Positions 369 to 27,549 of a stretch of DNA of 32,000 nt are shown here, piece after piece. Source of the stretch: Actinomycetota bacterium (lineage in GTDB: Bacteria; Actinomycetota; Nitriliruptoria; Nitriliruptorales; Nitriliruptoraceae); NCBI GenBank assembly GCA_019347575.1, contig JAHWKY010000012.1:34648-66647 (forward strand), in the 5' to 3' direction. Numbering within the stretch: position 1 is the first letter of the stretch; every line of letters begins with the position of its first letter. The translations under genes and the position numbers were made by a program. The notes beneath the pieces are model-generated. The model had not been told where the DNA came from and ran no database searches. It saw only the letters and a program-made list of their open reading frames with translations.

Positions 369-1280
369 GTGTCGCTGCGCCCGACCAGCCGCGAGAAGGC
401 GGAGCCAAGGGCGAGACGGAACCCGCCGATGGCTAGACCCGCCAGGATCGGGGCGGTCGAGCCCCCGGTCGCCCGCATCGCCCTCAGCGCCATCCACGCC
501 GAGGGCCTGGTCAAGACGTTCAGCAGCCGCGACGGCGACGTCGAGGCGGTGCGGGGCGTCGACCTCGAGGTCACGACCGGCGAGGTCTTCGGCTTCCTCG
601 GTCCCAACGGAGCCGGCAAGTCGACCACGGTGCGGATGCTGACGACGCTGATGCGCATCGACGCCGGCTCAGCGGCGGTGGCCGGGGTCGACGTGGCAGC
701 CGAGCCCGATCGCGCACGCCAGCACATCGGTGTGGCGCTGCAGGAGGCGGGGCTCGACAACCGCCAGACCGGACGCGAACTGCTGGTCCTACAGGCCCGG
801 CTGTTCTCGATGACGCCCCGCGAGGCCGCCGACCGCGCCGAGGAGCTGCTCGAGCTCGTCGAGCTCACCGACGCGGCCGACCGCCTGATCAAGGGCTACT
901 CGGGCGGCATGAAGCGACGGCTCGACCTCGCCTCGGCGCTCGTGCACGAGCCCGACGTGCTGTTCCTCGACGAGCCCACCACCGGGCTCGATCCCGCCAG
1001 CCGCCTGACGGTCTGGGACGAGGTCCGTCGCATCAACGCCCGCGGGACCACCGTGTTCCTCACGACGCAGTACCTCGAGGAGGCCGACCAGCTGTGCGAC
1101 CGGCTGGCGATCATCGACGAAGGACGGATCGTGCGGGAGGGCTCCCCGGACGAGCTGAAACGTCAGTTGCGGCAGCGGCTCGATCTCGACCGCGAGCCCA
1201 CCCTGGACGACGTGTTCCTCGATGCCACCGGCCGCACCCGCGAACGGGTTGCCGGGGCGGTCAAGGAGGTGACCGCGTGA
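369..1280 (+). CDS. ABC transporter ATP-binding protein (DrrA/ABC-2 exporter type)
   Basis: Walker A GPNGAGKST, ABC signature YSGGMKRRL and Walker B LFLDEPTTGLD. The start is ambiguous (GTG 369 or ATG 429). Confidence 0.9.
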   Translation: MSLRPTSREKAEPRARRNPPMARPARIGAVEPPVARIALSAIHAEGLVKTFSSRDGDVEAVRGVDLEVTTGEVFGFLGPNGAGKSTTVRMLTTLMRIDAGSAAVAGVDVAAEPDRARQHIGVALQEAGLDNRQTGRELLVLQARLFSMTPREAADRAEELLELVELTDAADRLIKGYSGGMKRRLDLASALVHEPDVLFLDEPTTGLDPASRLTVWDEVRRINARGTTVFLTTQYLEEADQLCDRLAIIDEGRIVREGSPDELKRQLRQRLDLDREPTLDDVFLDATGRTRERVAGAVKEVTA

Positions 1281-2032
1281 GCAGTTCCCTCGTGCTGGGT
1301 CAACGCGCGATCCGGGAAGCGCTGCGGGCGCCGGACGCCCTGCTGCCGACGCTGTTCATCCCGCTGTTCTTCCTCGTCGTGAACGTCGGCCAGGCCGGGC
1401 GCATCTTCCCGTCCAACGACACGGCGTTCCTGCACGGCCAGAGCTACGCGGCGTTCCAGCTGCCGAACTCGCTGCTGATCGCTGCGTCCTTCGGCAGCGC
1501 CGCGCTCTACCTGGTCGAGGAGATCGAGGGGGGCTACCTCGACAAGCTGCGTGCGACCCCCGTCTCCCGCGCGTCGATCGTGCTGGGCCGGCTGTTCGCC
1601 GAGTTCGTCAAGAGCCTCGTCGTCAGCACGCTCGTCGTGGTGCTCGCGCTGCCGTTCGGGGCGCGGATGGCGAGCGGGTTCGCGGGCTTCCTGGCGCTCA
1701 TCGTGTTGATGGCGCTGTGGGCGATGGTGTTCAGCGGCTTCATGCAGCTCGTCGCGCTCAAGACCCGCAGCGCTGCGGCGACGCAGTCGGCGGGCCTGGT
1801 GTTCTTCCCGCTGCTGTTCCTGACGCCGAACTTCGTCCCGCGCGAGCTGCTGACACGGCCGATGGAGATCGCGGCGACCTTCAACCCCGTGACATACATC
1901 ATGGAGGGATCGAGGTCGCTGATCCTCGAGGGCTTCGAGCTGGCCTCGGTCGCACGCGGGTTCGTGGTGGTCGCGCTGGCCGGGGCGGCGATGATCGCGC
2001 TGAGCATCCGTTCGATCAACCGCTACGACTGA
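1277..2032 (+). CDS. ABC-2 type transporter permease
   Basis: GTG 1277 overlaps the ATPase stop (GTGA) and is preceded by AAGGAGG at 1264-1270. The product is hydrophobic and multi-TM. The longer 1094 start gives an R/P-rich extension inside the ATPase gene and was rejected. Confidence 0.85.
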   Translation: MSSSLVLGQRAIREALRAPDALLPTLFIPLFFLVVNVGQAGRIFPSNDTAFLHGQSYAAFQLPNSLLIAASFGSAALYLVEEIEGGYLDKLRATPVSRASIVLGRLFAEFVKSLVVSTLVVVLALPFGARMASGFAGFLALIVLMALWAMVFSGFMQLVALKTRSAAATQSAGLVFFPLLFLTPNFVPRELLTRPMEIAATFNPVTYIMEGSRSLILEGFELASVARGFVVVALAGAAMIALSIRSINRYD

Positions 2033-2606: not shown

Positions 2607-3506
2607 ATGGCTGACATCAAGCTGTTCCAGACGGCTGGCCCGACGCCTATCGAGCTCGACGCACGGTCGGCCGCCCTCGAGAAGTCCCTCCAGAACCTGA
2701 TCGAAAGACATCTCGACGTCTTCCTGGGCGTGCGGTTCCTCGCGAGCGAGTACTCCACCGGCCGCAAGCACCGGGGACGCATCGACACTCTCGGTCTCGA
2801 TGAGAACAACTCCCCCGTCATCATCGAGTACAAGCGCTCGACCGGCGAGAATGTCATCAACCAGGGGCTGTTCTACCTCGACTGGCTGCTGGACCATCGC
2901 GCCGAGTTCCAAGCGCTCGTTGCTCAGGTCGTCGGTGGCGATGTTGTCGTCGATTGGTCTGCCCCGCGGCTTCTGTGCATCGCCGGCGACTTCACCCGGT
3001 ACGACGAACATGCTGTGGAGCAGATCAGCCGATCCATCGAGCTCATCCGCTACCGACAATACGGCAGCGAGCTCTTGCTGTTCGAGCTGGTCAACGCCGC
3101 AGCGACCGACGCCAGCGCGCCTACCACGCCAACGAGCGGCGCTGGATCCGAGAAAACGGTCGCCGATTACCTCGCGCAGGCTCCTGCCGTGATGGTCGAT
3201 CGCTACAGGACGCTGGAGGAGTTCGCACTGTCACTCGGGGACGACGTGACGAAGAAGGAGTTGAAGAACTACTTCGCGTTCCGGCGCCTGAAGAACTTCG
3301 CCTGCATCGAGGTGCACCCAGGTGGCGGTCACCTGCTCGTATACGTGAAGGTGAATCCGGACGAAGTCGAACTCGTCGACGGCCTGTTGCGAGATGTCCG
3401 GAACATCGGACACTTCGGCACTGGTGACCTTGAGGTCCGAGTCACCGACGACGACCACCTCGATGTCGCCAAGGAAATGATCCGGCGTAGCTACGAGGTC
3501 AGCTGA
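2607..3506 (+). CDS. NucS/DUF91-like PD-(D/E)XK endonuclease with a DUF5655-like C-terminal domain
   Basis: GGAG lies 5-8 nt upstream of ATG 2607. The nuclease core is GRIDTLGLDENNSPVIIEYKR (D...E-x-K). The C-terminal half (KNYFAFRRLKNFACIEVHP...VYVKV) resembles DUF5655. Confidence 0.7.
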   Translation: MADIKLFQTAGPTPIELDARSAALEKSLQNLIERHLDVFLGVRFLASEYSTGRKHRGRIDTLGLDENNSPVIIEYKRSTGENVINQGLFYLDWLLDHRAEFQALVAQVVGGDVVVDWSAPRLLCIAGDFTRYDEHAVEQISRSIELIRYRQYGSELLLFELVNAAATDASAPTTPTSGAGSEKTVADYLAQAPAVMVDRYRTLEEFALSLGDDVTKKELKNYFAFRRLKNFACIEVHPGGGHLLVYVKVNPDEVELVDGLLRDVRNIGHFGTGDLEVRVTDDDHLDVAKEMIRRSYEVS

Positions 3507-3522: not shown

Positions 3523-3579
3523 TGGGGAGACCTACAGCGCACGATCCGACGGCGCGTGCGCGACCTCGGAGGCAAGTGA
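3523..3579 (+). pseudogene. Remnant of the last ~18 codons of a hipA-like gene
   Basis: Translates to W-GDLQRTIRRRVRDLGGK*. The intact hipA at 27364-27423 ends WMRDLQRTIRRRVRDLGGR*. Confidence 0.8.
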
Positions 3580-3631
3580 TCGGGATGCAGCGCCACGTGC
3601 GTGGGCACACCGGAGCGGCGAAACCCCTGAG
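3529..3631 (+). repeat. Direct repeat copy A (hipA 3' end plus ~50 nt downstream); partner at 27373-27474
   Basis: My hand alignment covers about 103 nt with about 14 differences including one 1-nt indel. Both copies share the core GGCACACCGGAGCGGCG(A/G)AACCCC. Weaker similarity may extend about 30 nt further upstream. Confidence 0.85.
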
Positions 3632-3733
3632 TAGTGTGTTTCGGCGACTCACGTACGAAGCCGTGGCCACGTGCAGACGACCTCATGGCCGCAGCAGCTC
3701 ATAACGCTCCCTCGGAGCGCGCGTCCGGGAGTG

Positions 3734-3768
3734 ACCAACTGGCGGCGATCGGCCGCCAGTAGAGTTGG
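3734..3768. terminator. Long imperfect GC-rich hairpin between convergent genes (candidate bidirectional terminator)
   Basis: ccaactggcggc-gatcg-gccgccagt(ag)agttgg. The inner stem is 9 bp (3738-3746 / 3752-3760) and the outer stem is 6 bp with a 2-nt bulge. There is no clear U-tract. Confidence 0.4.
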
Positions 3769-3926
3769 CCCGCAGATGGTACGCGCCGTCTTGGCGTGCC
3801 TCGTCTCGAGTTCCAGAGCCTTGTCGTCCTACCAGCGGACTGTCGCCTCGTCGGGCTACCGAAGTGCGTCCACAGGCTCCAGCTCACCGAAATTTCCTGC
3901 CGCAAGCGCTACTGCTACGCGCAGTG

Positions 3927-5954
3927 CTACAAAGAGTCTTGAGTGGGCTGCCCCGGGGCTAAGAGGCGGCCCTCGTATTGGTACAAGTCGTATTCGTATC
4001 CCTCCAGCATGTCCATTAGCGACTCCGTCGCCTCACTAGTAAAGACAACGACCTGGCCGTGCTCATTCGCCATCGTCGCTGCCCGCTGGAGCAAGTGTTC
4101 CAGACTGACATCATCGACGCCCTGCTGTCCTGGCTCATCGAAGAGGAGAAATCCTGGGTGGTTAGTGTCGAACCGGCGTCCCGTCGCCATTAGCCCGAGC
4201 ATGTACGACCAGATGAGTCGGATCAGGTCGCTACCCGAGAGTTCGAAGTGCAAGTCGAAGCCCTCGACAGAGGGGCGATAGCTGTCTTCGTCGAGCTCGA
4301 TTGACGTCACAGGTATCGAGCCGAGCCCGTAGTCAGAGAGTTGATCTCGGAGAAAGTCCCCGAAAGCCTGAACCTTCTCCCGATCTCGAGCTGAGAGTCG
4401 CGCCGAGCGCAACTGATCGCGCCGTTCCTCCAACTCTTCGAGCCGCGAGGACAGGGTCACCAACTCTTCCTCCAGATCGCTGAGGAGGTCAGCAGCCTCG
4501 CGTATGCTCTCTAGGCGCCTCTCTACGAACAGGCGTCTTTCAACGTCCGCTTCCGTTGGGGCGCCGGAGGGTTGGCTGAGTGACTGTCGTAGGCTGCGGA
4601 GCTGGGCCTGGACAGATGCTGCTTCGGTTCGGAGCGCGGCCAATTCCGTTTGAACGACTTCCTGATCTTCGATGGCGGCGGCGAGGAGGTAGCGAAGTGT
4701 CTCCCGCTGTTTCTCCAAGAACGTGATGCTCTCGTCGACGCTAGTGACGATGACTCCCTCTGCATCCTCCAGCAGTGCGTCGGGCAGGGGCCGCTCGCAA
4801 GTGGGGCAGTGCTCCTGTGCCATGGGACTGTGGAGTGGGGACGACCCGAAACGGCGGAGCGTGCGGACGTCTCGGTATCGGCTCAGGTCCGATTCGTTCT
4901 CCTCTAGGCGACGGTCGAGGCGGCGCGAAGCTTCCGCCGACGCATCTGCCTGGGATTGCAACGCTTGCCCACGCAGAAGCAGTTCGTCCAACGTCTCCTG
5001 GCCCTGAGCGAGTTCAGCCAGTACCGCTTCGTCCGTGTCGGACGAGGCCGAGCGGCTTCCTTGTTGCCGTAGACGGGACAGTTCTTCTTCTAGTCGCTCC
5101 TGGACCTCGGAGACTGGCTGCCAGCCGTCGGAGCCGGCCACAATCAGTTGAAGATCAAGGCTGGTCAGGCCGATACGCGGCTGGCTCGGGTACTGTGGAG
5201 CACCCAGGCCGCGAGTTCGAAGCGCTTCGCGGAAGGCAGCCACGACTGAGCGCCAGTCGGATCGCAACTGACGGATGTCGGCTTCGACTTGCTCAAGCTC
5301 TGCTTGCCAGTTTCCCGATTCAAGACTCAACAAAAACTGGATCGCCTGCTCGGCAGGCTGTCGAATCCTGAACTGGCGCGGAACCGTCGCGGAGATGTCG
5401 GACCAACCGCGCTTCTGTTCGACCACTAAGAAGGGAAAGAGGCATTCGACATACAGAGGCACAAGCGTTCCGTCGAAGCGAGGAACGTGGGGAAGGCGCC
5501 ACCCGAGAAACTGTGCGAGAAGACGGTGGAACCCAGCTTCGTTCTGCGCAGCGCCTTGGTACCTAACGAAGTAATCCCTACCTTCTGCCTCACCGCCTCG
5601 CCAAACCCGTACTAGACGGGGATCGAAATTCTGGCTCCGGCCATAGCGTTGCGTGCGTAGCCGTTCTCCCTCGCCATTCACGATGACAACCTCGACCCAA
5701 GAAGCTTCAACCGGGATCTCCTCGGGACTTACCGAATCTCGTACCGAGCCGGTCATTGCATGTTGTAGGAGTGCACCGGAAGTCGATGACACCATGTGGT
5801 CAAGACCGAGTCCGTACAGCAAGCCCTGAACTACCGTCGACTTGCCCATGGAGTTGTCCGCACGCACGATCTGCAGACCAGTCTCGAACTCCTGGAAGAA
5901 CTCAAACGTGCGACTTGCCGTGAGCGACGTGAGCCGTATCGATTCAAGATGCAT
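3927..5954 (-). CDS. SMC/Rad50-like ABC ATPase of a Lamassu / ABC-3C-type system (LmuB-like)
   Basis: Walker A DNSMGKST, a long coiled-coil middle with HCPTCERP (CxxC encoded at 4797-4808), signature-like LSGSD and Walker B FLLFDEPGQQG. The start (ATG 5954 or TTG 5957) overlaps the upstream stop. Confidence 0.8.
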   Translation of the reverse strand: MHLESIRLTSLTASRTFEFFQEFETGLQIVRADNSMGKSTVVQGLLYGLGLDHMVSSTSGALLQHAMTGSVRDSVSPEEIPVEASWVEVVIVNGEGERLRTQRYGRSQNFDPRLVRVWRGGEAEGRDYFVRYQGAAQNEAGFHRLLAQFLGWRLPHVPRFDGTLVPLYVECLFPFLVVEQKRGWSDISATVPRQFRIRQPAEQAIQFLLSLESGNWQAELEQVEADIRQLRSDWRSVVAAFREALRTRGLGAPQYPSQPRIGLTSLDLQLIVAGSDGWQPVSEVQERLEEELSRLRQQGSRSASSDTDEAVLAELAQGQETLDELLLRGQALQSQADASAEASRRLDRRLEENESDLSRYRDVRTLRRFGSSPLHSPMAQEHCPTCERPLPDALLEDAEGVIVTSVDESITFLEKQRETLRYLLAAAIEDQEVVQTELAALRTEAASVQAQLRSLRQSLSQPSGAPTEADVERRLFVERRLESIREAADLLSDLEEELVTLSSRLEELEERRDQLRSARLSARDREKVQAFGDFLRDQLSDYGLGSIPVTSIELDEDSYRPSVEGFDLHFELSGSDLIRLIWSYMLGLMATGRRFDTNHPGFLLFDEPGQQGVDDVSLEHLLQRAATMANEHGQVVVFTSEATESLMDMLEGYEYDLYQYEGRLLAPGQPTQDSL

Positions 5955-6427
5955 CAAAGGGACACCCCCTCGACGTCTGCAGAGGTCGGTAGCAGGGCCA
6001 CCACCCGGCTTTGGGTGATCGGTTGAGGGAGTTCGTTCAGCAATTGGACTACGTCGGACATCAGGCCCGCATCCAGGAGCTGCGTGAGATGTTCTCGGCC
6101 GCTATGCGTGAGGACGATCGAGCCGCTGGACTGACGATCTGCCAGTCCGCGGATGACCGCACGCGTGACTGCCTGATCCACGGCCGGGTTGAAGCGGACC
6201 CCCATCCGTCGCCAGATACTGCGCTGGGGAGTGTCCGCTGCGTAGGCAGCGACGAACTGGCTGAAGTTCTCTCTGCTCCTCGCAGCCCACACCAATGCAT
6301 GGAGTTGGGGAAGACCCGCTCGGTCGCCCCAGCAAGCATCTATGGCTAGTAGAACGACCGCGACCATCCAGTCGGGCCTCAGTTCAGGCGGGAGGTGCTG
6401 CCCACGTCGATCGAACTGGGATCTCAT
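5954..6427 (-). CDS. Small middle component of the Lamassu / ABC-3C-type system (LmuC-like)
   Basis: A ~157-aa protein wedged between the effector and the ATPase. ATG 6427 overlaps the upstream stop (ATGA) and its own stop overlaps the ATPase start. The call rests on position and size, not on a motif. Confidence 0.6.
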   Translation of the reverse strand: MRSQFDRRGQHLPPELRPDWMVAVVLLAIDACWGDRAGLPQLHALVWAARSRENFSQFVAAYAADTPQRSIWRRMGVRFNPAVDQAVTRAVIRGLADRQSSGSIVLTHSGREHLTQLLDAGLMSDVVQLLNELPQPITQSRVVALLPTSADVEGVSL

Positions 6428-7299
6428 TCCTCGACCCAGTCCAGCCGGCAATCGAGGATCCAGCTGGCCGTCGCCCCTCTGGCCAGCTTGAGTATGTCTG
6501 CAGCGGACAGCGCAGGAAGGGCGTCGCTGAACACTTCTTGGAGACGGGCGACGATGTGCTGGATGAGTTCCCTAGGCGTTCCTGAGTGGCCATCGATTTC
6601 GAATCCGATTCCCTCAACCTCAACGGCTTCCGTGCGCAACATCGCTTGATGAGCTTCCGGGAACTGCTCGAGAGCGGCTTGCGCCTCTAGGTACCGCCCA
6701 TAGAAGGCTTGAATGTCGATCACGAACCGGTCACGCCGTGTGGCGTGTTCCGGTTCCACGCTCTCCGCTTTGCGACTCAAGTTTCCTATGAATTCCGGTG
6801 GACTGGTGGCTGCAGGCGGGTTCTCCTGGTGAGGGAGGGCGACGTTGCTGGACACCAGGTTCAGTGCGGCCTCAATGTCGCCCCGCAGAGCAGCAGCGTC
6901 ACGAATGTGGATTCGAAACTGGGGGTCGATGCCGTCGAGTCCCATTTCACGAACTTCCTGAGCCTTCTTAGCTGCGTGATCGAGAAGGTGTCGACTGTCG
7001 TGCTTGGGCACGACCAGTTCCCAGACGGCGATCGGTCCCCCCAACCAATCGGTGATGGTCGAAAGGTTTTCAATTGTCGTCCGAAGATCGTCCGTGATCT
7101 TCCTCTGCTGCCTTTTCAGGCGGGTGGGGACGTCCAGGAAGGGGTCCGCGGGGCCGTAGCACTGAAAGACTCGCCGAGAGTCAGGTTCGTAGCCGTCGAT
7201 TCCGCAATCACCATCGTGCTGGGCCGGGACCGGTTGGAAGTTGGGGTACCGGTGACCGAGAGCGCGTACCGCGACGTTCTCCCAATCGTCCCCGGCCAA
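6424..7299 (-). CDS. Effector of the Lamassu / ABC-3C-type system with an Mrr-like restriction-endonuclease N-terminal domain (LmuA-like)
   Basis: The N-terminus WENVAVRALG...HDGDCGIDGYEPDSRRVFQCYG matches the Mrr-cat pattern (FE..., GDGGIDG, hQCK), but Y replaces the lysine. The C-terminal half is helical. The only start candidate is TTG 7299, so the start is uncertain. Confidence 0.6.
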   Translation of the reverse strand: MAGDDWENVAVRALGHRYPNFQPVPAQHDGDCGIDGYEPDSRRVFQCYGPADPFLDVPTRLKRQQRKITDDLRTTIENLSTITDWLGGPIAVWELVVPKHDSRHLLDHAAKKAQEVREMGLDGIDPQFRIHIRDAAALRGDIEAALNLVSSNVALPHQENPPAATSPPEFIGNLSRKAESVEPEHATRRDRFVIDIQAFYGRYLEAQAALEQFPEAHQAMLRTEAVEVEGIGFEIDGHSGTPRELIQHIVARLQEVFSDALPALSAADILKLARGATASWILDCRLDWVEE

Positions 7300-7772: not shown

Positions 7773-8313
7773 TCATCGCCGCGCAAGCTCGTCGCGTATC
7801 TCCTCCATGACCGGGCGCAGACTTTGAAGATGATCGATAACGGCCCCGCAGTAGTCGCGCAGCTCGCGGTCGCCGGACCAGACGTCCCCGAAGGGTTCGA
7901 GCGCCCAGCCGTCACCCTCCGGGGCAGGCCGTTTTACGTACGTGTAGTGCGCGACGCGAACTCGGGCCTTCGCCGCGTCACGAGCGATCTCGGCGAAGCG
8001 CCAAGCTTCCAGCGGAGCTACAAGCGGGTCCTTCTCGTCCGCGGCCATGAGCGCCTTGATGACGCTTGAGAGGTTCGTGGTCGAGCAGCCAAGGCTCAGG
8101 GCCTTGTTCAGACCCGCCGCCACGCGGTCGCCCGCGGCGATGAACGCCTGCAGGACGCCCTCGAAAGTGAGCTTGGACGGCGACCGGAGGCACCGGACCG
8201 CGCGGCAGCTCCTCGTAGGCGCGCTCCAGCTCGATCAGGTGGTACTCAGCGATAGCGATCTTGCGCTCTGCGCCATCGAGGTACCGCTCCAGAGCCTGGT
8301 TCGCGCCATTCAC
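7773..8313 (-). pseudogene. ~180-aa helical protein of unknown function, interrupted by a 1-nt frameshift (or sequencing error); carries an R-x4-H (HEPN-like) motif
   Basis: GTG 8313 overlaps the stop of the upstream nuclease gene (GTGA). VNGANQALERYLDGAERKIAIAEYHLIELERAYEEL.. turns into R/G/P-rich junk near 8175-8203, and a second frame becomes protein-like there (SKLTFEGVLQAFIAAGD...). The 541-nt span is 3n+1. RVRVAH is encoded at 7947-7964. Confidence 0.5.
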
Positions 8314-9398
8314 GACGGCTCGTAGGGCGGGATGTCGAAGTGTTCGATGACCTTCTCGAGCGTGAACTGCTGGCGCAGCTGGCAGACCGAGTTGGGGACC
8401 GCGAACATGCCCTTCTCCCAGTAGCCGTCGGGCTCGGGCACCGCCTTGATCCACTCGACCCGGACGACGTGTTCGATGGCCTCGGGGTCGTCGAGGTGCT
8501 CATCCAGTCGCGGCGACTTCAGGGGAAGTTGCAGGAGAGGCGTACCGTTCACCTCGAAGTCCGTGATCGGCACAGCACGCTCGCGCACGATGCCGACACC
8601 GACGTACCCGTGACCTGGCGCCAAGACGAACACGCGGTCACCCAGGGCGAGGTTGAACAGCGGCTTGATCCAGCGTGGTCCACCACTCGCCGAGACGAAG
8701 CCGTACTGCCGCCCGTCCTCCCACGCGCGAACCTGGGGCGGCCCGAAGGTCACGTAGTAGTCGTGCCCGTTCCAGGGCGGCCGCCGTCCGGCGACGCGGC
8801 TGCTCTTGACCTCGACCTCGGTGGGATCGATCAGCCACGAGCGTGCCAGGTACTCAGCGCCCGTCTCGACATCGGCGAAGTAGCGGAAGAAGACGGCGTT
8901 CACGGGAACGCCGTACTCCTCGGTCAGGTACGTGACGATCCGTTCCGTGCTGGGGTCCAGCTCGCTCGCGACGATCACGAGGTGGTGTTGCTTGTTGAGG
9001 TTCTCATCGGGCGACTCGCCGAACCGCTCGTCGTAGGCGACCTCGAACTCCAGCCCCCGTCGCGGACCGTTCCGTGCCCAGATGTCGCGGATGTCCTCGT
9101 AGCTGAGGTCCTTCACCCACGAGGCGTAATCGAGGACCTGCGCCACAACGTCGCGGGGCGTCCGATCACGCTTGAGCTCGATGACGTGCAGGTCACCATC
9201 CGCATCGATGGCCAGTACATCGATGTACCCGCCGGCCGCCGTCGGGATCTGGCGACCCACGACCATGACACCGAGCCCCAGGATGTCGATGTCGTAGACG
9301 AGCAGATCCTCAAGGCGCTTCTCATCGGGCATCGACGTCGCGGCCAGGGATGTCGCCTTGTCCCCCAGTAGACGCCATACGCCGAACTCGACCGGCAT
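8310..9398 (-). CDS. NucS/DUF91-like PD-(D/E)XK nuclease fused to a C-terminal domain of unknown type (possibly PUA/EVE-like)
   Basis: The nuclease core is GGYIDVLAIDADGDLHVIELKRD followed by VVAQVLDYASW, paralogous to the 2607-3506 product. The C-terminal half (GFVSASGGPRWIKPLFNLALGDRVFVLAPGHGYVGVGIV...VRVEW) has the sequence flow of EVE/ASCH-like domains. That part is inference only. Confidence 0.65.
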   Translation of the reverse strand: MPVEFGVWRLLGDKATSLAATSMPDEKRLEDLLVYDIDILGLGVMVVGRQIPTAAGGYIDVLAIDADGDLHVIELKRDRTPRDVVAQVLDYASWVKDLSYEDIRDIWARNGPRRGLEFEVAYDERFGESPDENLNKQHHLVIVASELDPSTERIVTYLTEEYGVPVNAVFFRYFADVETGAEYLARSWLIDPTEVEVKSSRVAGRRPPWNGHDYYVTFGPPQVRAWEDGRQYGFVSASGGPRWIKPLFNLALGDRVFVLAPGHGYVGVGIVRERAVPITDFEVNGTPLLQLPLKSPRLDEHLDDPEAIEHVVRVEWIKAVPEPDGYWEKGMFAVPNSVCQLRQQFTLEKVIEHFDIPPYEPS

Positions 9399-9549: not shown

Positions 9550-10308
9550 TCATTGACTGACACGACCGGGCACGTCGTGCGGTGGCCACTCACCATCATC
9601 GGAGAGAGGCAAGCGGGCTAGTTCTGACCGGCGTCGCCGCCAGTCAGGCATCGCGGCGGTCAAGAGGCGCTCGAAGCGCTCGGTGTGGCCTGGCTCCACC
9701 AGATGCAGCATCTCATGAAGGATCACATACTCGAGGCACGGACGAGGCTTCTGCGCAAGCTGGAGGTTGAGCCAGATCCTCCTGGCCTCCGGGTTGCAGG
9801 TCCCCCACTTCGTTCGCATGCGACGGACGCGCCACTCGACCTGTGCGACGTCGAGCTGCTCTTCCCACTTGTTGACCAGAGCTGGCACAGCGACTTTCAA
9901 CTCGCGACGTCGCCACTCCTCCAAGATCATCGCGCGCTCATCGCGGTCTGCTGCGGTCGGGACCGTCAAGAGCAAGATTCCACGACCGGCGATCTCGACC
10001 CCCGACGTCTTCCCACCCGAGACGACCCTCAGCCGGTGTCGCTTTCCCCATACATAGTGACTCTCGCCTGTGACCATCTCCCGAACTGATTGCCGAGGCT
10101 GGGCGAGCAGCTCATCGCGCTGGTCTCGGATCCACTTCAGCCGGTCCACGACAGCCATCCGCACCGCGTCCTCGTCCATGTGCTCGGGTGCGGAAACACG
10201 GATCAGACCATCCGGTGGGTAGACCGCGATGTGCAGGTTCTCGATCTGCTTGCGGACCACGTGAACGGTGAGGTCGCTCACCGTGATGGTTAACCGCTCA
10301 GTACTCAT
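9550..10308 (-). CDS. DUF45 / M48-family (YgjP/SprT-like) zinc metallopeptidase
   Basis: HEMLH (HExxH) lies in ..EYVILHEMLHLVEPGHTERF.. ATG 10308 overlaps the hsdR stop by 11 nt. The annotated 10365 start would lie inside hsdR. Confidence 0.8.
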   Translation of the reverse strand: MSTERLTITVSDLTVHVVRKQIENLHIAVYPPDGLIRVSAPEHMDEDAVRMAVVDRLKWIRDQRDELLAQPRQSVREMVTGESHYVWGKRHRLRVVSGGKTSGVEIAGRGILLLTVPTAADRDERAMILEEWRRRELKVAVPALVNKWEEQLDVAQVEWRVRRMRTKWGTCNPEARRIWLNLQLAQKPRPCLEYVILHEMLHLVEPGHTERFERLLTAAMPDWRRRRSELARLPLSDDGEWPPHDVPGRVSQ

Positions 10309-13300
10309 CCTGGGCCTTGATGATCTCGAACAGCTCTTCGGTGTTGTACTGGGCACGCTGCTCACTGCTTAGGACTGCATCGAGCGCCCTGTGGATCTCA
10401 CGCTGCTTCATGACGCTGCTCCGCCAGCCATCGCGCTTTGTACCGCGCACGGCTTCATCGATCGCCAGGGCCAGCTGCTCGTTGCTGTCGAGGTTGTCGT
10501 ACAAGGCCCGCCTTGCAGGGCTGTCGATCGGCGCCGGATAGGAAGCGCCCCCTGGTCGAGTGACCTGGCCTGCGATTTTCTCCAGCTCCTTGAGGTACTG
10601 CCGGTAGTCGAACGCACGGCGACGGCGCTCTTCGATGACGTTGTCAAGCAGGACAGACATCCGGTCGTAGTACTTCGGATTGACAGGCCGCTCGTCAACG
10701 ATGACCCGTCTGACGTTGTTGACGATCGTTTCAGCGGAGAGGTCATCGTCGTCGCGGATGCCCTCGGGCAAGGATGCGATTGCGCCGGCCGCGCCACGCT
10801 CGACGATCAGCTGCACGAGGCCCTGCTCATCGAAGTCGGACAGGACCTGCGAGTCCTCGGCCTCGATGTAGCTGTCGAGCAGGTGCCGCATGTCGGGCTC
10901 GTAGACCTTGAGGTCGACATAGTCGCCGCTGGCGAGCTTGACCTCACGGCGGACGTTCTCGTAGTGCTTGACCTCCGCGGCTATCTCTGCCGCTTCCTGT
11001 CCGCTGTAACCGGCCTCGTCCATCTCGTTGGCCAGGTCCGCGTAGGCGCGGACGAACGCCCCCACGTGCTTGTAGAGCTTGAGTCGCTTGGGTTCGTTGG
11101 CCTTCAGCTGCTGCGCGTTGCCACTGTCTTCCGCGCAGAAGTAGTGCAAGTAGTCGCTGGTCGACGGCTGTTGACCGATAGGCTCACAGAGGGCCTTCAC
11201 GATCTCGCGTGTCTCGTCGAGTCGTTCTCGGGCCTGGTCGAGCCGGTTCTTGATGAGCCCGGCGACGTCCTCGTGGTCGTAGTCCTCGAAGGCTCCGGAC
11301 GTGTAGACGTGGACGGCAGACTCCAGGGACTTGAACAGGTCCTGGTAGTCGATGATGCAGCCGTACTCCTTGTCTTCACCGTCCAGTCGGTTGACGCGGC
11401 AGATGGCCTGAAACAGGCCGTGGTCGGCCATCGGCTTGTCGATGTACAGGTAGGTCGCTGCCGGCGCGTCGAAGCCAGTGAGGAGCTTGTCGACAACGAT
11501 CAGCAGCTTCATCTGGCCGGGCTGTTCGATGAACTTCTGCTTGACCTCGTCCTCGAAGTCCTCGACGCGACCGACCGCATCGTCTTCGCTGATGTCGAAG
11601 TAGTCGGCGACCATCTTGCGATAGGTGGCGTACTTCTCCAGCGCTTCGGTCTCGCCTTCGCCGGTCTCCTCACCCTTGATCGTGTCGGCGGTCGGTCGGT
11701 AGCTCGTGACGATCGCGCACTTGTGCTTCAGCGATGTGCGACTGAACGCCTCGTAGAACTTGCAGGCTTCGTAGATGGAGGAGCAGACCAGCAGCGCGTT
11801 CCCGCGGTCGTTCATCAGCCGGTCGCGGGTGGCCATGTCGAACATGATGTCCGCGACGATCTTGTCGAGGCGCGACTGGGCGGTCAGCACCTTCTGCAGC
11901 GTCCCCCACCGGCGCTTGAGGTCAGCCTTGGCGAGGTCAGACAACCCCTTGGTCTTGGCCTCGAACCAAGCGTCGATCTTGCCCGGCGAGGTGATCCGCT
12001 GGTCGATGTCGCGTGCTTCGTAGCGAAGGTCGAGGATGACGCCGTCCTCTACGGCTTCATCGAACTTGTAGGTGTGGATGTAGGAGCCGAACACCTCGAT
12101 GCTGCGCGCCTTGTCGTCCTTCAGCAGCGGGGTGCCGGTGAACCCGATGAACGTCGCCCCGGGCAGCAGTTCACGCATGTCGGCGTGCAGCTTGCCGGAC
12201 TGGGTGCGGTGGCACTCGTCGACGAACACGAACAGGTTCCCGCGGGCCTCGAACCCAGAAGCGATCGCACGCTCGACAGCTTTGGCGTAGTCGGCTTCGT
12301 CACCGGTGCCGACGCCGAATTTGTGCACGAGGGTGCACAGCAGCCAGTTGGCGCCATCACGTAGCTGTTTGATGAGGTCGGCACCGCTGGCGGTGCGGTA
12401 GATCTGCTCGTCGACGCCGTAGAACACCTTCTCGATCTGCTCGTCGAGCTCTTCGCGGTCGGTGACGATCAGCACGCGGGCGTCTTCGACGTTCTCCCGG
12501 ATCCACTTGGCGAGCCACACCATGCTCAGGCTCTTCCCGGAGCCCTGGGTGTGCCACAAGATCCCGCCTTCGCGGTCCTTGACGCGCTGCTGGCCGGCCT
12601 TGACGCCGAAGTACTGGTTGTGCCGAGCGATCTTCTTGGTGCCAGCGTCGAACACGATGAAGTCGTGGATCAGTTCGAGCAGCCGCGCCTGGTTGCAGAG
12701 GACAAGGGCCGCGTCCAGCGGGCTGGCGAGCTCTGACGGTTCTTTCCACTCGAGCCAGTACTTCTGCGGTGTCTCGATGACGGAGTAGCGCAGCCCTTCG
12801 GTGTCGTTGCCGGCCATGACTAGCTGGACGGTGGAGAAGAACGGCTGGATGAACTCCGGCTTCTGGTTGTCGAGCATCTGCCGGACGCCCTCGGTGACCG
12901 ACACGGTCGAGCGCTTCAGTTCGAGCACAGCGACGGCGATCCCGTTGACGTACAGCACGATGTCGGGGCGCTTGTCGTGCTTGCCGGCGACGGTGACCTC
13001 TTCGGCGAGAGCGAAGTCGTTGTTCTCAGGATCGTCCCACTCGATGAAGTTGAGGTGCTGGGCTTGCTTGCCAGCTTCGACCTGGGCGTCGTGCCCGTAG
13101 CGCAGGAGGAAGTAGACGTCGCGGTTCGCGTCGTACAAGCTGCGGCCACCGCCTACTGCCTTCGCTCGACGCAGCGCCTGGAGAGCCTGGTTGATCAGCC
13201 CGTCTTCGTAGCCCTGGCGCCGGAGCCAATCGGTGAGCCGCGGTTCGATGACGTTGCTGTTGTCGTCGGCGTCCTTGAGGTTGCCGAGGTAGGTGTAGTC

Positions 13301-13369
13301 GAGATCGTCGCCGAGCAGTTCGACGACCCGGTTCTGTACGCGGCGTTCGTGTTGGCCAACGTCGCTCAT
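10298..13369 (-). CDS. hsdR: Type I restriction enzyme R subunit
   Basis: N-terminal nuclease motif PDIVLYVNGIAVAVLELKR, helicase motif I TQGSGKS and motif II FVDECH. The product is 1023 aa. There is an ATGA overlap with hsdS. Confidence 0.95.
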   Translation of the reverse strand: MSDVGQHERRVQNRVVELLGDDLDYTYLGNLKDADDNSNVIEPRLTDWLRRQGYEDGLINQALQALRRAKAVGGGRSLYDANRDVYFLLRYGHDAQVEAGKQAQHLNFIEWDDPENNDFALAEEVTVAGKHDKRPDIVLYVNGIAVAVLELKRSTVSVTEGVRQMLDNQKPEFIQPFFSTVQLVMAGNDTEGLRYSVIETPQKYWLEWKEPSELASPLDAALVLCNQARLLELIHDFIVFDAGTKKIARHNQYFGVKAGQQRVKDREGGILWHTQGSGKSLSMVWLAKWIRENVEDARVLIVTDREELDEQIEKVFYGVDEQIYRTASGADLIKQLRDGANWLLCTLVHKFGVGTGDEADYAKAVERAIASGFEARGNLFVFVDECHRTQSGKLHADMRELLPGATFIGFTGTPLLKDDKARSIEVFGSYIHTYKFDEAVEDGVILDLRYEARDIDQRITSPGKIDAWFEAKTKGLSDLAKADLKRRWGTLQKVLTAQSRLDKIVADIMFDMATRDRLMNDRGNALLVCSSIYEACKFYEAFSRTSLKHKCAIVTSYRPTADTIKGEETGEGETEALEKYATYRKMVADYFDISEDDAVGRVEDFEDEVKQKFIEQPGQMKLLIVVDKLLTGFDAPAATYLYIDKPMADHGLFQAICRVNRLDGEDKEYGCIIDYQDLFKSLESAVHVYTSGAFEDYDHEDVAGLIKNRLDQARERLDETREIVKALCEPIGQQPSTSDYLHYFCAEDSGNAQQLKANEPKRLKLYKHVGAFVRAYADLANEMDEAGYSGQEAAEIAAEVKHYENVRREVKLASGDYVDLKVYEPDMRHLLDSYIEAEDSQVLSDFDEQGLVQLIVERGAAGAIASLPEGIRDDDDLSAETIVNNVRRVIVDERPVNPKYYDRMSVLLDNVIEERRRRAFDYRQYLKELEKIAGQVTRPGGASYPAPIDSPARRALYDNLDSNEQLALAIDEAVRGTKRDGWRSSVMKQREIHRALDAVLSSEQRAQYNTEELFEIIKAQDEY

Positions 13370-14589
13370 GCTGCTCCCTCCTCGGCCGCTAGGCGTGTGC
13401 GTCCGGTGAGGAGCTCCCGGATCATCCCTTGCTTCACGGCACGCGTCTTCTCAAGCCTCCCCCGAAGCGCCGTGATCTCATCATCCATGTCCGCGAGGAT
13501 CTCGGTGATTGCCCGCTGCTCAGCCAGCTCAGGTACGCGTAGGGCCATCACCTTGAGGTCTGATGTGCCGACCTCGTCGAAGGTCGAGCCTGACCCTAAG
13601 GCCTCGATGTCCCGGCGCCGTTGCGTCAGCAAGAAATAGACGAACGTGGGGTCTACATCCGAGCCGCAGACGAGAGACTTGAACCCCTGGTTCGTGGCGA
13701 TCGGTTGCTTCGCGAGTTTCAACTCTCCGATGGTGGCACGGGTGCAAAGGAGCAGCGCGCCCTCGGGCAGTAGACGGGCAGATGAAGCCTTCAGGCCCTT
13801 CTTGGTGATGGTTCGAGACGTAGCATCTAGGTACCGGCCATGCCCGGCTGTGATGTCAGTCGGCGTACACCACGGGATGTCACCGTCCCAGTAGGCCGCG
13901 ACACCCGTGTCCGGTGTTCCTCCGGGAACGACGTCGCATAGGTCCCGGAGGGGACGTTCACGCCAGTCCTGGCCAAACGAGGGGAGGCGCAGTGCTTCCG
14001 TCAGGAGCAACTGGCGCGTCGCTGTTAAGACCCCCTGCTTCTTGTCGATGAGGCGTTCGAGCGACTCGATCAGGTCGTCGGTATCTCCAAGAGCTCCCAC
14101 GATCCGCGCCTGCTCCGTTCGGGGCGGGGCCGGTAGCGGCACACGCTCGAACTTCTCCTTCGGCAGGTGAGCGATGCTGGTGCGGGCTGTGAACTCGTCG
14201 AGATGGTCGGTGTCCTGCCAGAAACTGAGGTAGTACATGAGCAGTTCGGGGCGATAGGAGCCTCTGCTGCGCAGACGGTGGATCGCCTTCTGGAAGTAGC
14301 ACTCATCCAGAGACGCATCCCAAATCGCGGCGCGTCCGACCTCACCTCCCTCACAGACCAGAAGGTCTCCAGGCTGGAGTCGGTAACGGGCCACGTCGTT
14401 CGCCGTGAAAGGTGCAGTTGATACCGCATCGAGGTCGATGCGGCCCCACTGGACTGCTGCGTTACCCACGTATGGTTTGTCGGTCCCGGTGCTGCGCGCG
14501 GCGTCGAGCATCTTCCCGAGTTCGAGAGTGAACTCCTCGCCGACTGTGCTCATGGTCCAGTCTGATGGAAGGTCTGTCTGGCCACTCAC
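13366..14589 (-). CDS. hsdS: Type I R-M specificity subunit with two target-recognition domains
   Basis: 407 aa with two TRD-like halves, each followed by a conserved helical spacer (..LPAPPRTEQARIV.., ..VPELAEQRAITEIL..). GTGA overlap with hsdM and ATGA overlap with hsdR. Confidence 0.9.
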   Translation of the reverse strand: MSGQTDLPSDWTMSTVGEEFTLELGKMLDAARSTGTDKPYVGNAAVQWGRIDLDAVSTAPFTANDVARYRLQPGDLLVCEGGEVGRAAIWDASLDECYFQKAIHRLRSRGSYRPELLMYYLSFWQDTDHLDEFTARTSIAHLPKEKFERVPLPAPPRTEQARIVGALGDTDDLIESLERLIDKKQGVLTATRQLLLTEALRLPSFGQDWRERPLRDLCDVVPGGTPDTGVAAYWDGDIPWCTPTDITAGHGRYLDATSRTITKKGLKASSARLLPEGALLLCTRATIGELKLAKQPIATNQGFKSLVCGSDVDPTFVYFLLTQRRRDIEALGSGSTFDEVGTSDLKVMALRVPELAEQRAITEILADMDDEITALRGRLEKTRAVKQGMIRELLTGRTRLAAEEGAA

Positions 14590-17129
14590 ACTGGCACCTC
14601 CACGCCCATCGCTTCGAGGTGCTTGGCGACACGCGCCGAGAGGTCCTCTGTCTCCGCGACGAGCTCAGGAAGCGTGGTGTCGTAGCGCTGCACGAGCTGC
14701 GCGATACGACCGGCCAGGCGAGACACAACACCGTCGATCTCCCTCGACAGCGCCGAACGGAGCGACGAGATCCACTTATCGTCCACGGTCAACCCGCGGA
14801 CCGCCGACTCGTCGAGCTCCTCGTACTTGCCCATCGCTGCCTTGATGAGGTCCGTCTCGGTCTCTCGGAGCGCAGCCTTCTCGGACGTCGCCCCGTCACT
14901 CAGCGCGAGCAACCGGTGCAGAATGTCTAGCTCGGCGAAGTAGCCCTCAGGGTCCTCGACACCGGCCTCCCACGTTCGCGTGCCGAACTTGGTCTTGGCG
15001 ATGCCTTTCGCCTGCTCGTATTCAAGGCTGTCGTCCGGGAACGCGTCGAGGATCAGATCCTTCAGCTCAGCCACGCGGTCCTGAGCGTTGCCTTTCGTCA
15101 CCCCGTTCGAGCCCTCGAGGCCGTCCAGAGCACCGCCTTCGACAGCGTGCTCCTCCTCGAACTCCGCGAGTTCAGCCTCCGCCGTTGCGACCGCTGCCGA
15201 CAGTTCGTCGAGCTGCTCCTGACGGTCAGGGAAGTAGCGGCCGATCAGCAGGCTGGGCGGCAGGAGATCAGCGACGTACTGGACCTTCTTCCGGCCCTTC
15301 TTGATCGCGAAGTCCGCGGCCTCCCTATCGCGCGCCTCCCTGAGCGAACGACCGACCTCCCAGCCCTCGGACACGATGAGGTAGACGTCGTCCTGCATGT
15401 CCGCGTCCCAGAAGTCCATGAACCGCTGGTAGACGTCGTAGCGGCTGACCAGAGGCACGTCGGCGAACCGGTCGAGCAGATCCTCAGCCAGCTCGATCCG
15501 CAACTCCTTCGGCGAGGTGTCCTCATCGATAGACCTGAGCTTCTCACGGTGGGCGTCAGCCCACTGCTCGAACCTCTGGCGGACCTCGGCGGCGAACGCT
15601 TCGAACTGCGGGTGGGACTCCACGGTCTCGCGGACGTGGTCCGCTTCGACGGCGGGTTGCACGTAGCCGTCTCGGCCGGCCGGCTCAAACAGCACCGTCC
15701 GCAGGTCGGGCATGACCTGCCAGTAATGCTCGAGTTCGTCGACGTCGCGGCGGGGGATCCCACCATGCAGGTGGGCGGTCAGGTCGTGGATGTCCTCGCG
15801 GTCGCTGGAGTCGATGTAGCGGGAGATGTTGAGGTTGAAGGCGTTCGCGTCGCTGGCTATCTCCTCGAGCGGTACGAGCCGGGAGTACCCGTCGATGTCC
15901 CGCTGGGTGCGGAAGACGTCGACGATCCTGTGGATGTCCTGCTCACGCAGCCGGTTCTTGTTGCCGTCCCTGATGTACCCGCGGCTGGCATCAATCAGGA
16001 ACACGCCGTGGCGCGTGCCGGCTTCCTTCTTGTCGACCACGACGATGCACGCGGGGATACCAGTTCCGTAGAACAGGTTGGCGGGCAGGCCGATCACGCC
16101 CTTGATCAGGCCGCGCTGCAGCAGGTTGCGGCGAATCACTGCTTCGGCGTTACCGCGGAACAGCACACCGTGGGGTAGGACGACCGCACCGGTGCCAGTG
16201 CTCTTCAGCGACTTGATGACATGAAGGAGAAAGGCATAGTCGCCGTTGCGGGTTGGCGGGACGCCGTACTCGAACCGGTTGAAGTCGTCGTTCTTCGGGT
16301 CGATGCCGTTCGACCAGGACTTCGTCGAGAACGGCGGATTGGCGACGACAAAGTTGAACGTCTTCAGTCGGCCCTTCTCGATGAACTCCGGCGCGGCAAG
16401 GGTGTTGCCTCGAGCAATGTCGTGGGTCGGCTGGCCGTGCAGGAACATGTTCATCCTCGCCAGGGCCCAAGTCGCGTTGTCAATCTCCTGTCCATACACG
16501 GTGACGTTGCCGCCAGCCTCATCGGCCGCCTTCAGCAACAGCGAGCCAGAGCCAGCGGTGGGGTCGTAAACGGTCTCGTCACGCGTGGTGTGCGGTCCGA
16601 TGCCAATAACCTGGGCGATGATCCGGGACACCTCGGCAGGGGTGTAGAACTGGCCCTTACTCTTTCCGGCCTCGCTGGCAAAGTGCCGCATGAGGTACTC
16701 ATAGGCGTCGCCGAGTAGGTCGTCGCCGGCGGCGAGGTTGTCGCTGAAGTCGAGCCGACGGTGGAAGATGTTAACTAGGGCAGACAGCCGGTCGACCTTG
16801 TCCTTGCCGCTGCCGAGCTTGGCGGAGTCGTTGAAGTCGGCCAGGTCGATGACGCCCTGCAGATCATTGGCCTCGGCCAGCCGACCGATCGCCTTGTTGA
16901 TCTTGTCGCCGATCTCCTTGTCGCCCACCAGGCTGTGGATGTAGTCGAACGAGCCCATTTCGGGCACGACGATGAGGCTGTGTGGGTCGGCGGCATGCTT
17001 GTCGGAGACGTACTTCACGAACAGCAGCGTGAGGACGTAGTCCTTGTACTGGGAGGCGTCCATGCCGCCACGGAGCTCGTCGCAGCTGTCCCAAATCGAC
17101 CGGTACAGATCGGACTTCTTGATTGCCAT
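14586..17129 (-). CDS. hsdM: Type I R-M N6-adenine DNA methyltransferase subunit with a long C-terminal extension
   Basis: N-terminal HsdM-type region, AdoMet motif VYDPTAGSGSLL and catalytic motif VVANPPFS. At 847 aa it has a helical extension of roughly 300 aa or more beyond the methylase core. Confidence 0.9.
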   Translation of the reverse strand: MAIKKSDLYRSIWDSCDELRGGMDASQYKDYVLTLLFVKYVSDKHAADPHSLIVVPEMGSFDYIHSLVGDKEIGDKINKAIGRLAEANDLQGVIDLADFNDSAKLGSGKDKVDRLSALVNIFHRRLDFSDNLAAGDDLLGDAYEYLMRHFASEAGKSKGQFYTPAEVSRIIAQVIGIGPHTTRDETVYDPTAGSGSLLLKAADEAGGNVTVYGQEIDNATWALARMNMFLHGQPTHDIARGNTLAAPEFIEKGRLKTFNFVVANPPFSTKSWSNGIDPKNDDFNRFEYGVPPTRNGDYAFLLHVIKSLKSTGTGAVVLPHGVLFRGNAEAVIRRNLLQRGLIKGVIGLPANLFYGTGIPACIVVVDKKEAGTRHGVFLIDASRGYIRDGNKNRLREQDIHRIVDVFRTQRDIDGYSRLVPLEEIASDANAFNLNISRYIDSSDREDIHDLTAHLHGGIPRRDVDELEHYWQVMPDLRTVLFEPAGRDGYVQPAVEADHVRETVESHPQFEAFAAEVRQRFEQWADAHREKLRSIDEDTSPKELRIELAEDLLDRFADVPLVSRYDVYQRFMDFWDADMQDDVYLIVSEGWEVGRSLREARDREAADFAIKKGRKKVQYVADLLPPSLLIGRYFPDRQEQLDELSAAVATAEAELAEFEEEHAVEGGALDGLEGSNGVTKGNAQDRVAELKDLILDAFPDDSLEYEQAKGIAKTKFGTRTWEAGVEDPEGYFAELDILHRLLALSDGATSEKAALRETETDLIKAAMGKYEELDESAVRGLTVDDKWISSLRSALSREIDGVVSRLAGRIAQLVQRYDTTLPELVAETEDLSARVAKHLEAMGVEVPV

Positions 17130-17372
17130 CTAGTGCACCCCCGCGATGTCAACTGGGCGATTGCGTACAAACGGGCCAATAGGCGTTACAGTCCTCGCAT
17201 CCCACCGCAGCGTGTCGCCGCTGGCGATGCGCAGGTTCACCCGGTCCCGAATTCGTTAGCCACTCGCGCGAGAAGCAGGTACCAGCGCTCCCGACCGTAG
17301 GTGGTAGCCGCAAGGCGCGGTCCCTGACGCCGGAAGTGCTCTCAGGTGCGCGTGACGCAAGTGCGAAGGTCA

Positions 17373-18008
17373 TCACCGGGGCTTCCTCCGTCCGGCTGCC
17401 GTTGTCGATGTCGGCCTCTGGATGGATCGGGATGAGCCCGGATCCGGATCGTCGACCACGGCAAGGTCAATCTCGAGCGCTCGCAGTTCGTTGACCTCAT
17501 CGGCCAGCTGTCTCAACTCGCGGTGGACACGATCAAGCTCCGACACAGCATCGTTCGTCTGATCCTGGTGGTCGAGGGAGGGCACCGGGACCTGCAACTG
17601 TGCGACGTCCCGAGCTGCAATCCGCGGTATCCCCGATCCGCTAGATCGGACCTCTACCTGACCCTGGAAGTACGACGATCGGGCCCACACGCCTAGCCAG
17701 CCAGGCGTGACCGGTCCTCCGGCGAGCGCACGCAGGACCACGCAGTCGCTACCGACCACCGCGCCGCGAAGTTCCTCGTCGACCACCCGTGCAGCCCCAG
17801 GTCTGAACGAGACCGCGAGAACAACGTCTCCAGGTTCGAGATCGTACGCCCAGCGCGCCTCGGGTTCGGGAAGGTACTGGGCCGGTGCGTCGTTGTCCGC
17901 GAGTGCCTTGGCGTTCAAGAACCTTGTCCCCGTGTCCGCCAGGTGGTCGTAATCGATCCGAACGCCGCGAGTGATGTCCGCCACGGACTGGAGCGGGACG
18001 CGTCTCAT
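17373..18008 (-). CDS. Half-size (single TRD) type I-like specificity subunit
   Basis: One TRD (LQSVADITRGVRI...) followed by the conserved VPVPSLDHQDQ...ELRQLADEVNELR helix. ATGA overlap with the upstream methyltransferase. Confidence 0.7.
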   Translation of the reverse strand: MRRVPLQSVADITRGVRIDYDHLADTGTRFLNAKALADNDAPAQYLPEPEARWAYDLEPGDVVLAVSFRPGAARVVDEELRGAVVGSDCVVLRALAGGPVTPGWLGVWARSSYFQGQVEVRSSGSGIPRIAARDVAQLQVPVPSLDHQDQTNDAVSELDRVHRELRQLADEVNELRALEIDLAVVDDPDPGSSRSIQRPTSTTAAGRRKPR

Positions 18009-24753: not shown

Positions 24754-24838
24754 CGTCCGCCGGCGCGAACCAGTCCGGGTCGCCCGCCAGCAACCTGCGC
24801 GCAGGCGCTGCAGGGTCGGGGGCCTGCCTCCGCCGATC

Positions 24839-25090
24839 TCAGCTCGCCCGGGCCGTCGGCTCGCTGTGGCGGTAGAGGGTCTCGGGGGAGATGTCCGATC
24901 CGTTCGGCCACACCAGCGTGCCGAGCTCCGGATCGACGCGAACCGCACGGAAGAGCTCGTCATCGGTGGCGATGTCCTCGAACGCGCGTCCCCAGAGGAA
25001 GCGGGACGACGCAGGCGTGGTGGAGTGCCTCGCGTCGGGCAACGACCCATCGACGCACGTGCCGCCCGTGACGCGGAGGCAGCGTTCCAA
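24839..25090 (-). CDS. DUF2442 family protein
   Basis: FEDIATDDELFRAVRVDPELGTLVWPNGSDISPETLY closely matches the DUF2442 C-terminal consensus. The N-terminal half is less typical. Confidence 0.6.
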   Translation of the reverse strand: MERCLRVTGGTCVDGSLPDARHSTTPASSRFLWGRAFEDIATDDELFRAVRVDPELGTLVWPNGSDISPETLYRHSEPTARAS

Positions 25091-25208
25091 CGATCACCCT
25101 CCGGGCGCGGCATCCACAGCCCAGCCACCGATGGATGCGCGGCCCTGCGTTCGAATCGGTGAACATCGGGGCCCCGACGGAGCCGACACACGAGGAGCAG
25201 AAGCGCCG

Positions 25209-27474: not shown

Positions 27475-27549
27475 CTGGCACATCGAGTTGAGAGCGGGTC
27501 ACCGAGCGAACGAACGGCCCCTCGGGCAACCTGAACCAGGATGAGCACG

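Follow-up and report, generated by a model that had tools for sequence, protein, structure and literature searches.

A displaced hipA 3' end in an actinobacterial defense island is probably (we estimate a probability of about 0.6) what is left of another hipBA module, divergent from the resident one, after its truncation during turnover of the island. The fragment forms a direct repeat with the end of an intact hipA gene farther along the same window, by which we mean the whole 32-kb stretch of DNA that was analyzed (32,000 nt). That right-hand copy would be the ordinary 3' end of the resident hipA together with a short unit after it, and the pair would not be one used by the nearby integrase.

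The repeat had been noticed by eye in a sequence-only reading of the window, and computed alignments upheld it. MAFFT, a repeat finder, and sensitive self-BLAST all placed positions 3529-3631 against 27373-27474 in the same orientation. The hand count of about 14 differences was close; the computed alignment has 12 mismatches and one 1-nt indel in 103 columns (about 87% identity), and its longest exact run is 35 nt (3535-3569, identical to 27379-27413). In the self-BLAST of the window, a check that the sequence-only reading had proposed, the pair was the sole significant self-match in 32 kb (E = 3.7e-25), with all remaining matches at E ≥ 8e-6. As had been described, the repeat consists of the last 16 hipA codons and the stop (51 nt) followed by 51 to 52 nt of downstream sequence, and the left copy still translates to DLQRTIRRRVRDLGGK*. 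A tblastn search matched HipA residues 396 to 411 to this copy (E = 1.6e-4). The distance from the stop of the 2607-3506 gene was adjusted: it had been given as 17 nt, counted to a start at 3523, and the computed similarity begins 22 nt after the stop. Alignment and gene annotation also agreed with the earlier description of direct repeats around ~24 kb of defense and toxin-antitoxin genes (23.8 kb by the computed limits), and with its remark that the geometry is odd, the fragment being upstream of the intact hipA and the only integrase (30406-31341) lying outside the repeats.

The window comes from a 134,897-bp contig of a metagenome-assembled genome of a Nitriliruptoria-like actinobacterium, and a false join in the assembly, at a short repeat common to two loci or strains, might yield such a pair. 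We consider this very improbable. The exact repeat, at 35 nt, is far below normal read length, and differences in the flanks distinguish the copies. Logan contigs of SRR15827330, a separate assembly, are 100% identical to the window, and all four flanks are represented among them at that identity. Their ends fall at 3564, 3540, and 27384, each 30 nt into the exact run, which is attributable to branching of a k = 31 graph at a true two-copy repeat. At k = 31, that assembly does not link the flanks in phase through the 35-nt run, which leaves some room for a mis-join, but even with swapped flanks an orphan hipA tail would remain beside either PDC-S18 or lmuB.

To describe the copies, we compared them with three relatives of the resident hipA, found on contigs of 1 to 4 kb: L002 (Logan SRR32660073), L013 (Logan SRR32548260), and L014 (JGI 3300042195). 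Their hipA genes are 93 to 96% identical to the resident gene at the nucleotide level. All three carry the coding half of the repeat (H), and after the stop they have CYAAC followed by a unit of ~34 nt (N'); none has the unit that we call D (Table 1). The order of segments is therefore H-D-N in the right copy, H-N' in the relatives, and H0-D0 followed by the unrelated spacer Z in the left copy. Similarity between the two copies stops at 3631, and Z gave no match to the hipA-downstream sequences of the window or the relatives. N and N' are about 80% identical, with an alignment score reached by 0 of 500 shuffles. D is a diverged duplicate of N; the score of their global alignment was reached by 0 of 2,000 shuffles, and scores from gap-tolerant alignments were reached by 0 of 2,000 and 5 of 2,000. 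Immediately after the hipA stop, D and N thus stand as two diverged tandem copies of a ~40- to 47-nt unit (27431-27511).

Table 1. Features of the 32-kb window bearing on the repeated hipA end.
Feature	Position	Strand	Support or remark
ABC transporter	369-2032		GC 0.70
PDC-S18 candidate defense gene (NucS_C + DUF5655), intact	2607-3506	+	PADLOC 5.7e-138; Pfam DUF5655 model positions 2-108 of 109
H0, orphan end of hipA (final 16 codons with stop)	3529-3579	+	Alignment, tblastn
D0, single D-type ~40- to 47-nt post-hipA unit	3580-3631	+	85% identical to 27424-27474
Z, unique spacer between fragment and lmuB 3' end	3632-3926	.	
Lamassu lmuA-lmuC-lmuB	3927-7299	-	PADLOC LmuB 1.9e-89, LmuC 1.4e-11, LmuA 1e-14
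PDC-S11, then YgjP-like peptidase	8310-9398 (PDC-S11)		
Type I R-M system, complete	10298-17129		
S-like subunit and second, HTH-fused N6 methyltransferase	After the type I R-M system (defense block 10298-19579)		
NYN, DUF6932, and HTH genes	Between the methyltransferase and 24145		
HTH + DUF6036 nucleotidyltransferase pair	24145-25721	+	
Resident hipB-hipA, intact	25930-27423 (hipA 26188-27423)	+	Pfam HipA_C, Couple_hipA; nucleotide identity 93-95% to L002, L013, and L014
H, intact hipA 3' end (coding half of right repeat)	27373-27423	+	Alignment
D, extra 47-nt unit after hipA stop	27431-27477	+	No counterpart in any of the three relatives
N, native post-hipA unit	27478-27511	+	Common to L002, L013, and L014 (about 80% identical)
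Fic/DOC, directly right of right copy	27599-28807	+	Pfam Fic 1.7e-22, Fic_N
Second HTH + DUF6036 pair, inverted, then 108-codon ORF	28886-29927 (pair)	-	
Tyrosine recombinase, only integrase in window	30406-31341	+	Pfam Phage_integrase 4e-26; start from L005 gene call
EEP-family gene, convergent with integrase	31381-31926	-	Pfam model positions 117-225 of 225

Folding of the D unit gave z-scores of +1.3 and -0.6, which is the level of shuffled sequence, and the two copies share no common fold. No stable hairpin, terminal inverted repeat, terminator-like site, or Rfam match was found in it, and we rejected the idea that it is a structured RNA or a terminator. Its distribution is most simply explained if the ancestor of the relatives lost it once; ectopic exchange between the two copies is the alternative. 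We also dropped the idea of a recurrent breakpoint at the end of the post-hipA unit (U), as the breakpoint between the left and right copies and that between L002 and L013 differ in position within the unit.

The left copy has the properties of a gene remnant: partial homology to hipA, no start codon or gene body, and no longer open reading frame. No ORF of at least 80 aa ends at 3579, and the fragment lies outside any long ORF. Residues 396 to 411 were the only part of HipA that tblastn recovered, and no other hipA or hipB remnant was found in the window; searches for debris, including in the gene-free interval 2033-2606, returned noise-level matches only. The fragment is probably inert at present. 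Its GC content (0.70) resembles that of the resident hipBA (0.73) as against PDC-S18 (0.62), Z (0.64), and lmuB (0.60), so that a piece of host-like composition sits between low-GC defense genes, a point that we counted in favor of a relic.

The differences between the copies bear on the descent of the fragment. Within the coding half, the fragment and the resident gene differ by two synonymous third-position changes (CTA/CTG and GGA/GGC) and by AAG/CGC, a lysine-to-arginine difference. Over the 51 coding nucleotides on which the allele comparison rests, the fragment is 5 changes from the resident allele and 4 from the alleles of the relatives, which are themselves 3 changes from the resident. 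The noncoding half is 85% identical between the copies, comparable to the divergence of N and N' between genomes. Synonymous and conservative changes combined with roughly equal distances would fit descent from a separate hipBA allele that diverged while it was functional. On these comparisons over 51 nt, the fragment may be the end of a separate working hipBA allele that already had its D-type unit, and less probably a recent copy of the resident end.

Some observations count against a relic. If differences were spread uniformly over the alignment, a perfect run of 35 nt would have P = 0.04. This run, however, sits in a 48-nt stretch that is invariant among the hipA alleles of the window, L002, and L013, and that stretch is one of the 8 to 12 runs of at least 35 nt that occur per hipA gene pair; ordinary coding conservation accounts for the run. 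A purely random truncation would predict neither that the last nucleotide of the left copy coincides with that of a D unit nor that D occurs at both copies in the window and in none of the three relatives. In addition, among the contigs of 1 to 4 kb that represent the relatives, a full-length second hipBA beside Lamassu was seen in none.

The right copy can be judged from its surroundings in related genomes. Apart from D, L013 and the window share one gene order that starts within the nucleotidyltransferase gene, at 25417, takes in hipBA, and extends to about 27545; L014 is collinear with 26687-27581, again apart from D. Given this collinearity on both sides, the right copy is not visibly a junction. 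As far as these alignments reach, the resident hipA block (encoding HipA MBW3663386.1) has kept its 3' end undisturbed there, with D as the exception. L002 departs from this arrangement: in its segment 1739-4383, hipBA-N' gives way to dprA and comM-like genes in convergent orientation and not to the Fic side, so that the hipBA module exists in at least two genomic contexts. In L014 (735-1045), hipA-downstream DNA corresponding to 27478-27581 is joined to the last ~60 integrase codons (31165-31334), and window positions 27582-31164 (3.6 kb) are missing, including Fic, the DUF6036 nucleotidyltransferase, the HTH gene, the 108-codon ORF, and most of the integrase. The L014 junction reads AAGC|GGG|CTCAGAC, and the corresponding breakpoints in the window share imperfect microhomology, CGACTAGG and CGATCTCAGG. 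Together, the alternative context in L002 and the deletion in L014 indicate that the neighborhood of hipBA rearranges readily. Between the right copy and Fic, the DNA is poor in GC (0.54 over 27512-27598); an AT-rich patch at 27535-27575 contains an inverted repeat, AGTTCA-N16-TGAACT, that is largely kept in L014 and is probably an operator or promoter.

The wider window is a dense defense island that includes PDC-S18, Lamassu, PDC-S11, a type I R-M system, an extra S-like subunit, and an N6 methyltransferase. GC content is 0.59 to 0.66 between roughly 2 and 24 kb, compared with 0.69 to 0.74 elsewhere in the window. Beyond the source genome, the closest LmuB has 37% identity, and neither LmuB nor the gene upstream of hipB had a close relative outside the source sample. 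To the left of PDC-S18, 570 nt after the ABC-2 permease (2033-2606) contain no convincing gene; the interval could be where the island begins on the left, or a sequence in decay. Two DUF6036/HTH pairs flank hipBA-Fic in inverted orientation; their HTH proteins are about 31% identical, and the pairs look like toxin-antitoxin modules. At the far right, the EEP-family gene may be 5' truncated or frameshifted.

Against this map we considered whether the copies could be functional attL and attR sites of a cis-mobilizable island of 23.8 kb that is moved in trans, by the 30406-31341 recombinase or by one encoded elsewhere, with the hipA tail plus U as the site. Alignment and self-BLAST do give the pair of direct repeats that such sites require, and these repeats contain the 3' end of a gene as well as a perfect core. 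Moving right from the right copy, a tyrosine recombinase is reached after 2.9 kb; the two copies share the D unit that the relatives lack, and integrase-less elements of the CIME type are known (PMC5704250). We nevertheless regard this reading as rather improbable, and the site-specific insertion at a gene 3' end put forward by the sequence-only reading did not gain support from geometry, island edges, collinearity, recombinase, copy number, or allele divergence.

When an element occupies the 3' end of a gene, the intact copy of that gene points into the element, and the fragment that was displaced marks the opposite, downstream boundary. In the window the two are placed the other way around: the fragment, on the plus strand, lies 24 kb upstream of the intact hipA on the same strand, and mirroring the map leaves the geometry wrong. 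The repeats also do not bracket the island. Low-GC defense DNA (PDC-S18) runs on to the left of the left copy, which therefore lies inside the island between PDC-S18 and lmuB and not at its edge, and the right-hand shift in GC, near 24 kb, precedes the right copy by 3.4 kb. Neither copy marks a junction of foreign and resident DNA, as judged by composition and by collinearity of the right copy with L013 and L014.

Searches of all ORFs with Pfam, NCBIfam, and PADLOC found no recombinase between the copies. The sequence-only reading had implied an integrase beside the right copy, where the adjoining gene turned out to be Fic/DOC. A sensitive scan of both strands of the 32-kb window did not turn up H, D, or N a third time; no repeat copy lies beside the integrase, within the window none closes off the Fic-to-integrase stretch downstream of hipA, and searches for repeats beside the integrase or at the GC boundaries found no shared k-mer beyond chance. 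The integrase is a 3' stump in L014. Its best full-length relative, at 36% identity, is from Quadrisphaera and lies 500 nt after a tRNA-Leu gene; none of its relatives has hipA, Fic, or DUF6036 nearby, and at no more than 36% full-length identity they are too distant to define an att site. D, for its part, has no structure or inverted-repeat signature.

Other candidate sites and enzymes were examined and set aside. The integrase is not XerC/D, an idea that came from the dprA/comM synteny in L002 (59 bits versus a cutoff of 335). A short putative att core that flanks D, GCACAYCGNGT, has no other exact occurrence, and its occurrences with one mismatch (8) are about as many as expected (7.2). The ATCYAAC that follows the stop in L002 and L013 resembles the RYYYAAC of an integron attC site, but there is no GTTRRRY partner, hairpin, or IntI-type integrase; integrons are not expected in Actinobacteria. 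A related proposal, in our judgment distinctly improbable, is that the hipA tail and the ~40-nt U together form a cis-acting recombination site that ends a mobile cassette tipped by hipBA, the block being moved in trans by a tyrosine recombinase. If this were so, excision would split or reconstitute hipA and would couple the mobility of the 23.8-kb island to a persistence toxin.

It was also conceivable that the repeated sequence is a dispersed intergenic element with no particular relation to hipA, which the sequence-only reading had named as an outcome that would overturn its interpretation. No such element appeared in the collections searched, although the metagenome part of this search was insensitive, and the window itself has only the two copies. 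A 24-nt probe from the noncoding half matched the window twice at up to 3 mismatches, with 0 matches expected in shuffles. The D 24-mer had no exact match in GTDB species representatives, JGI metagenomes, or IMG/VR, and an H 28-mer had none in pattern scans of JGI or IMG/VR. The metagenome scan, however, missed the 28-mer in a sequence that contains it letter for letter, JGI contig Ga0395771_0680821 (L014), and negative scans of metagenomes are therefore weak evidence. With two copies in the window and no hairpin or terminal inverted repeats, we rejected a REP- or MITE-like repeat.

An unlikely but more serious competitor is a Campbell-type accretion, in which a circle with a complete hipBA of its own recombined, by homologous or site-specific means, within the 3' end of a resident hipA so that a full hipBA stood on either side of the cargo, the body of the left gene was later deleted, and the repeats are the borders of an acquired 24-kb segment. 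The direct orientation of the repeats fits, as does the abrupt beginning of similarity at the left edge of the perfect 35-nt run. The different contexts of hipBA in L002 as compared with L013 and the window fit as well, and accretion followed by decay has been documented for integrative elements (PMC5704250). On the other hand, accretion needs an additional, unobserved deletion that ended 22 nt after an intact PDC-S18, and the shift in GC coincides with neither repeat. The series HTH-nucleotidyltransferase-hipBA-N is conserved with the relatives as a resident-looking, high-GC block, and copies that are 12 to 13% diverged imply that the event was not recent. Of the two origins offered by the sequence-only reading, recombination or accretion between related elements is compatible with a former second hipBA, and site-specific insertion is the part that gained no support.

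We therefore favor a relic, for which the following sequence of events can be proposed. A second hipBA would once have occupied the left position, or its tail would have been brought in on the edge of neighboring DNA. Loss of its gene body would then have extended as far as codon 395 or so, and downstream nothing past the first post-hipA unit would have been kept. The setting would have been the gain or exchange of defense cassettes, PDC-S18 to one side and Lamassu to the other, through illegitimate or homologous recombination. We infer that any present activity would be passive only: with 103 nt at ~87% identity, 35 nt of them in a perfect core, RecA-type recombination between the copies could occasionally delete 23.8 kb. 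A cell with this deletion would be without Lamassu, PDC-S11, both methyltransferase systems, and hipBA, and such deletants would be disfavored through addiction because the toxin-antitoxin pair would be lost with the rest.

If the left copy is such a relic, it would be a small, clean record of turnover in an actinobacterial defense island, in which a toxin-antitoxin module was overwritten by PDC-S18 and Lamassu and in which the leftover homology can delete about 24 kb of defense genes together with the surviving hipBA. The pair also carries a caution for the calling of island boundaries, as a long direct repeat that includes a gene 3' end near an integrase can mimic a pair of att sites. The matter would be greater only if the repeats proved to be active in recombination.

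Several known systems resemble parts of this arrangement. In prophage e14 at icd of Escherichia coli, the intact gene reads into the element, the fragment is downstream at the far end, and the integrase is inside. Like e14 and other elements that supply a surrogate gene end, the window has a short direct duplicate of a gene 3' end, with an identical block that gives way to diverged homologous sequence. Unlike e14, the fragment here is 24 kb upstream, the integrase is outside, and the downstream flank of hipA is undisturbed in relatives.

Tandem accretion of CIMEs with ICEs or IMEs, as in ICESt1/ICESt3 at fda of Streptococcus thermophilus (PMC5704250), offers a second parallel: integrase-less cargo between direct repeats that include a gene 3' end, beside a block that bears an integrase. 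The history proposed for those arrays is one of decay and serial acquisition, and we counted this as a likeness. Such arrays, however, have three or more att copies, with the intact target gene at the outer end reading inward, whereas the window has two copies, the intact gene stands between the blocks, and no copy is found at the integrase end.

HipAB is known as cargo that stabilizes composite islands, as shown experimentally for GI21/CGI48 of Shewanella putrefaciens (PMC8978831), and it is also carried on SXT/R391 ICEs (PMC4489591). The resident hipBA likewise belongs to a composite island with defense and toxin-antitoxin cargo, and by analogy, loss of the segment is predicted to be counterselected here. 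In GI21/CGI48 and SXT/R391, hipAB lies away from the att sites (tRNA-Trp and yicC), and no hipA fragment serves as a repeat.

A further likeness is to the gene remnants and scars of defense islands and other variable regions, which are short in-frame fragments of host-like composition that lie between independent cassettes with no partner pieces. The fragment described here differs from the usual remnant in that a near-identical intact paralogue stands 24 kb away in the same orientation, which makes the pair a potential substrate for deletion. We conclude that the repeat represents a displaced end of hipA, plausibly left by accretion, and that it adds one more instance to a well-known type of scar.
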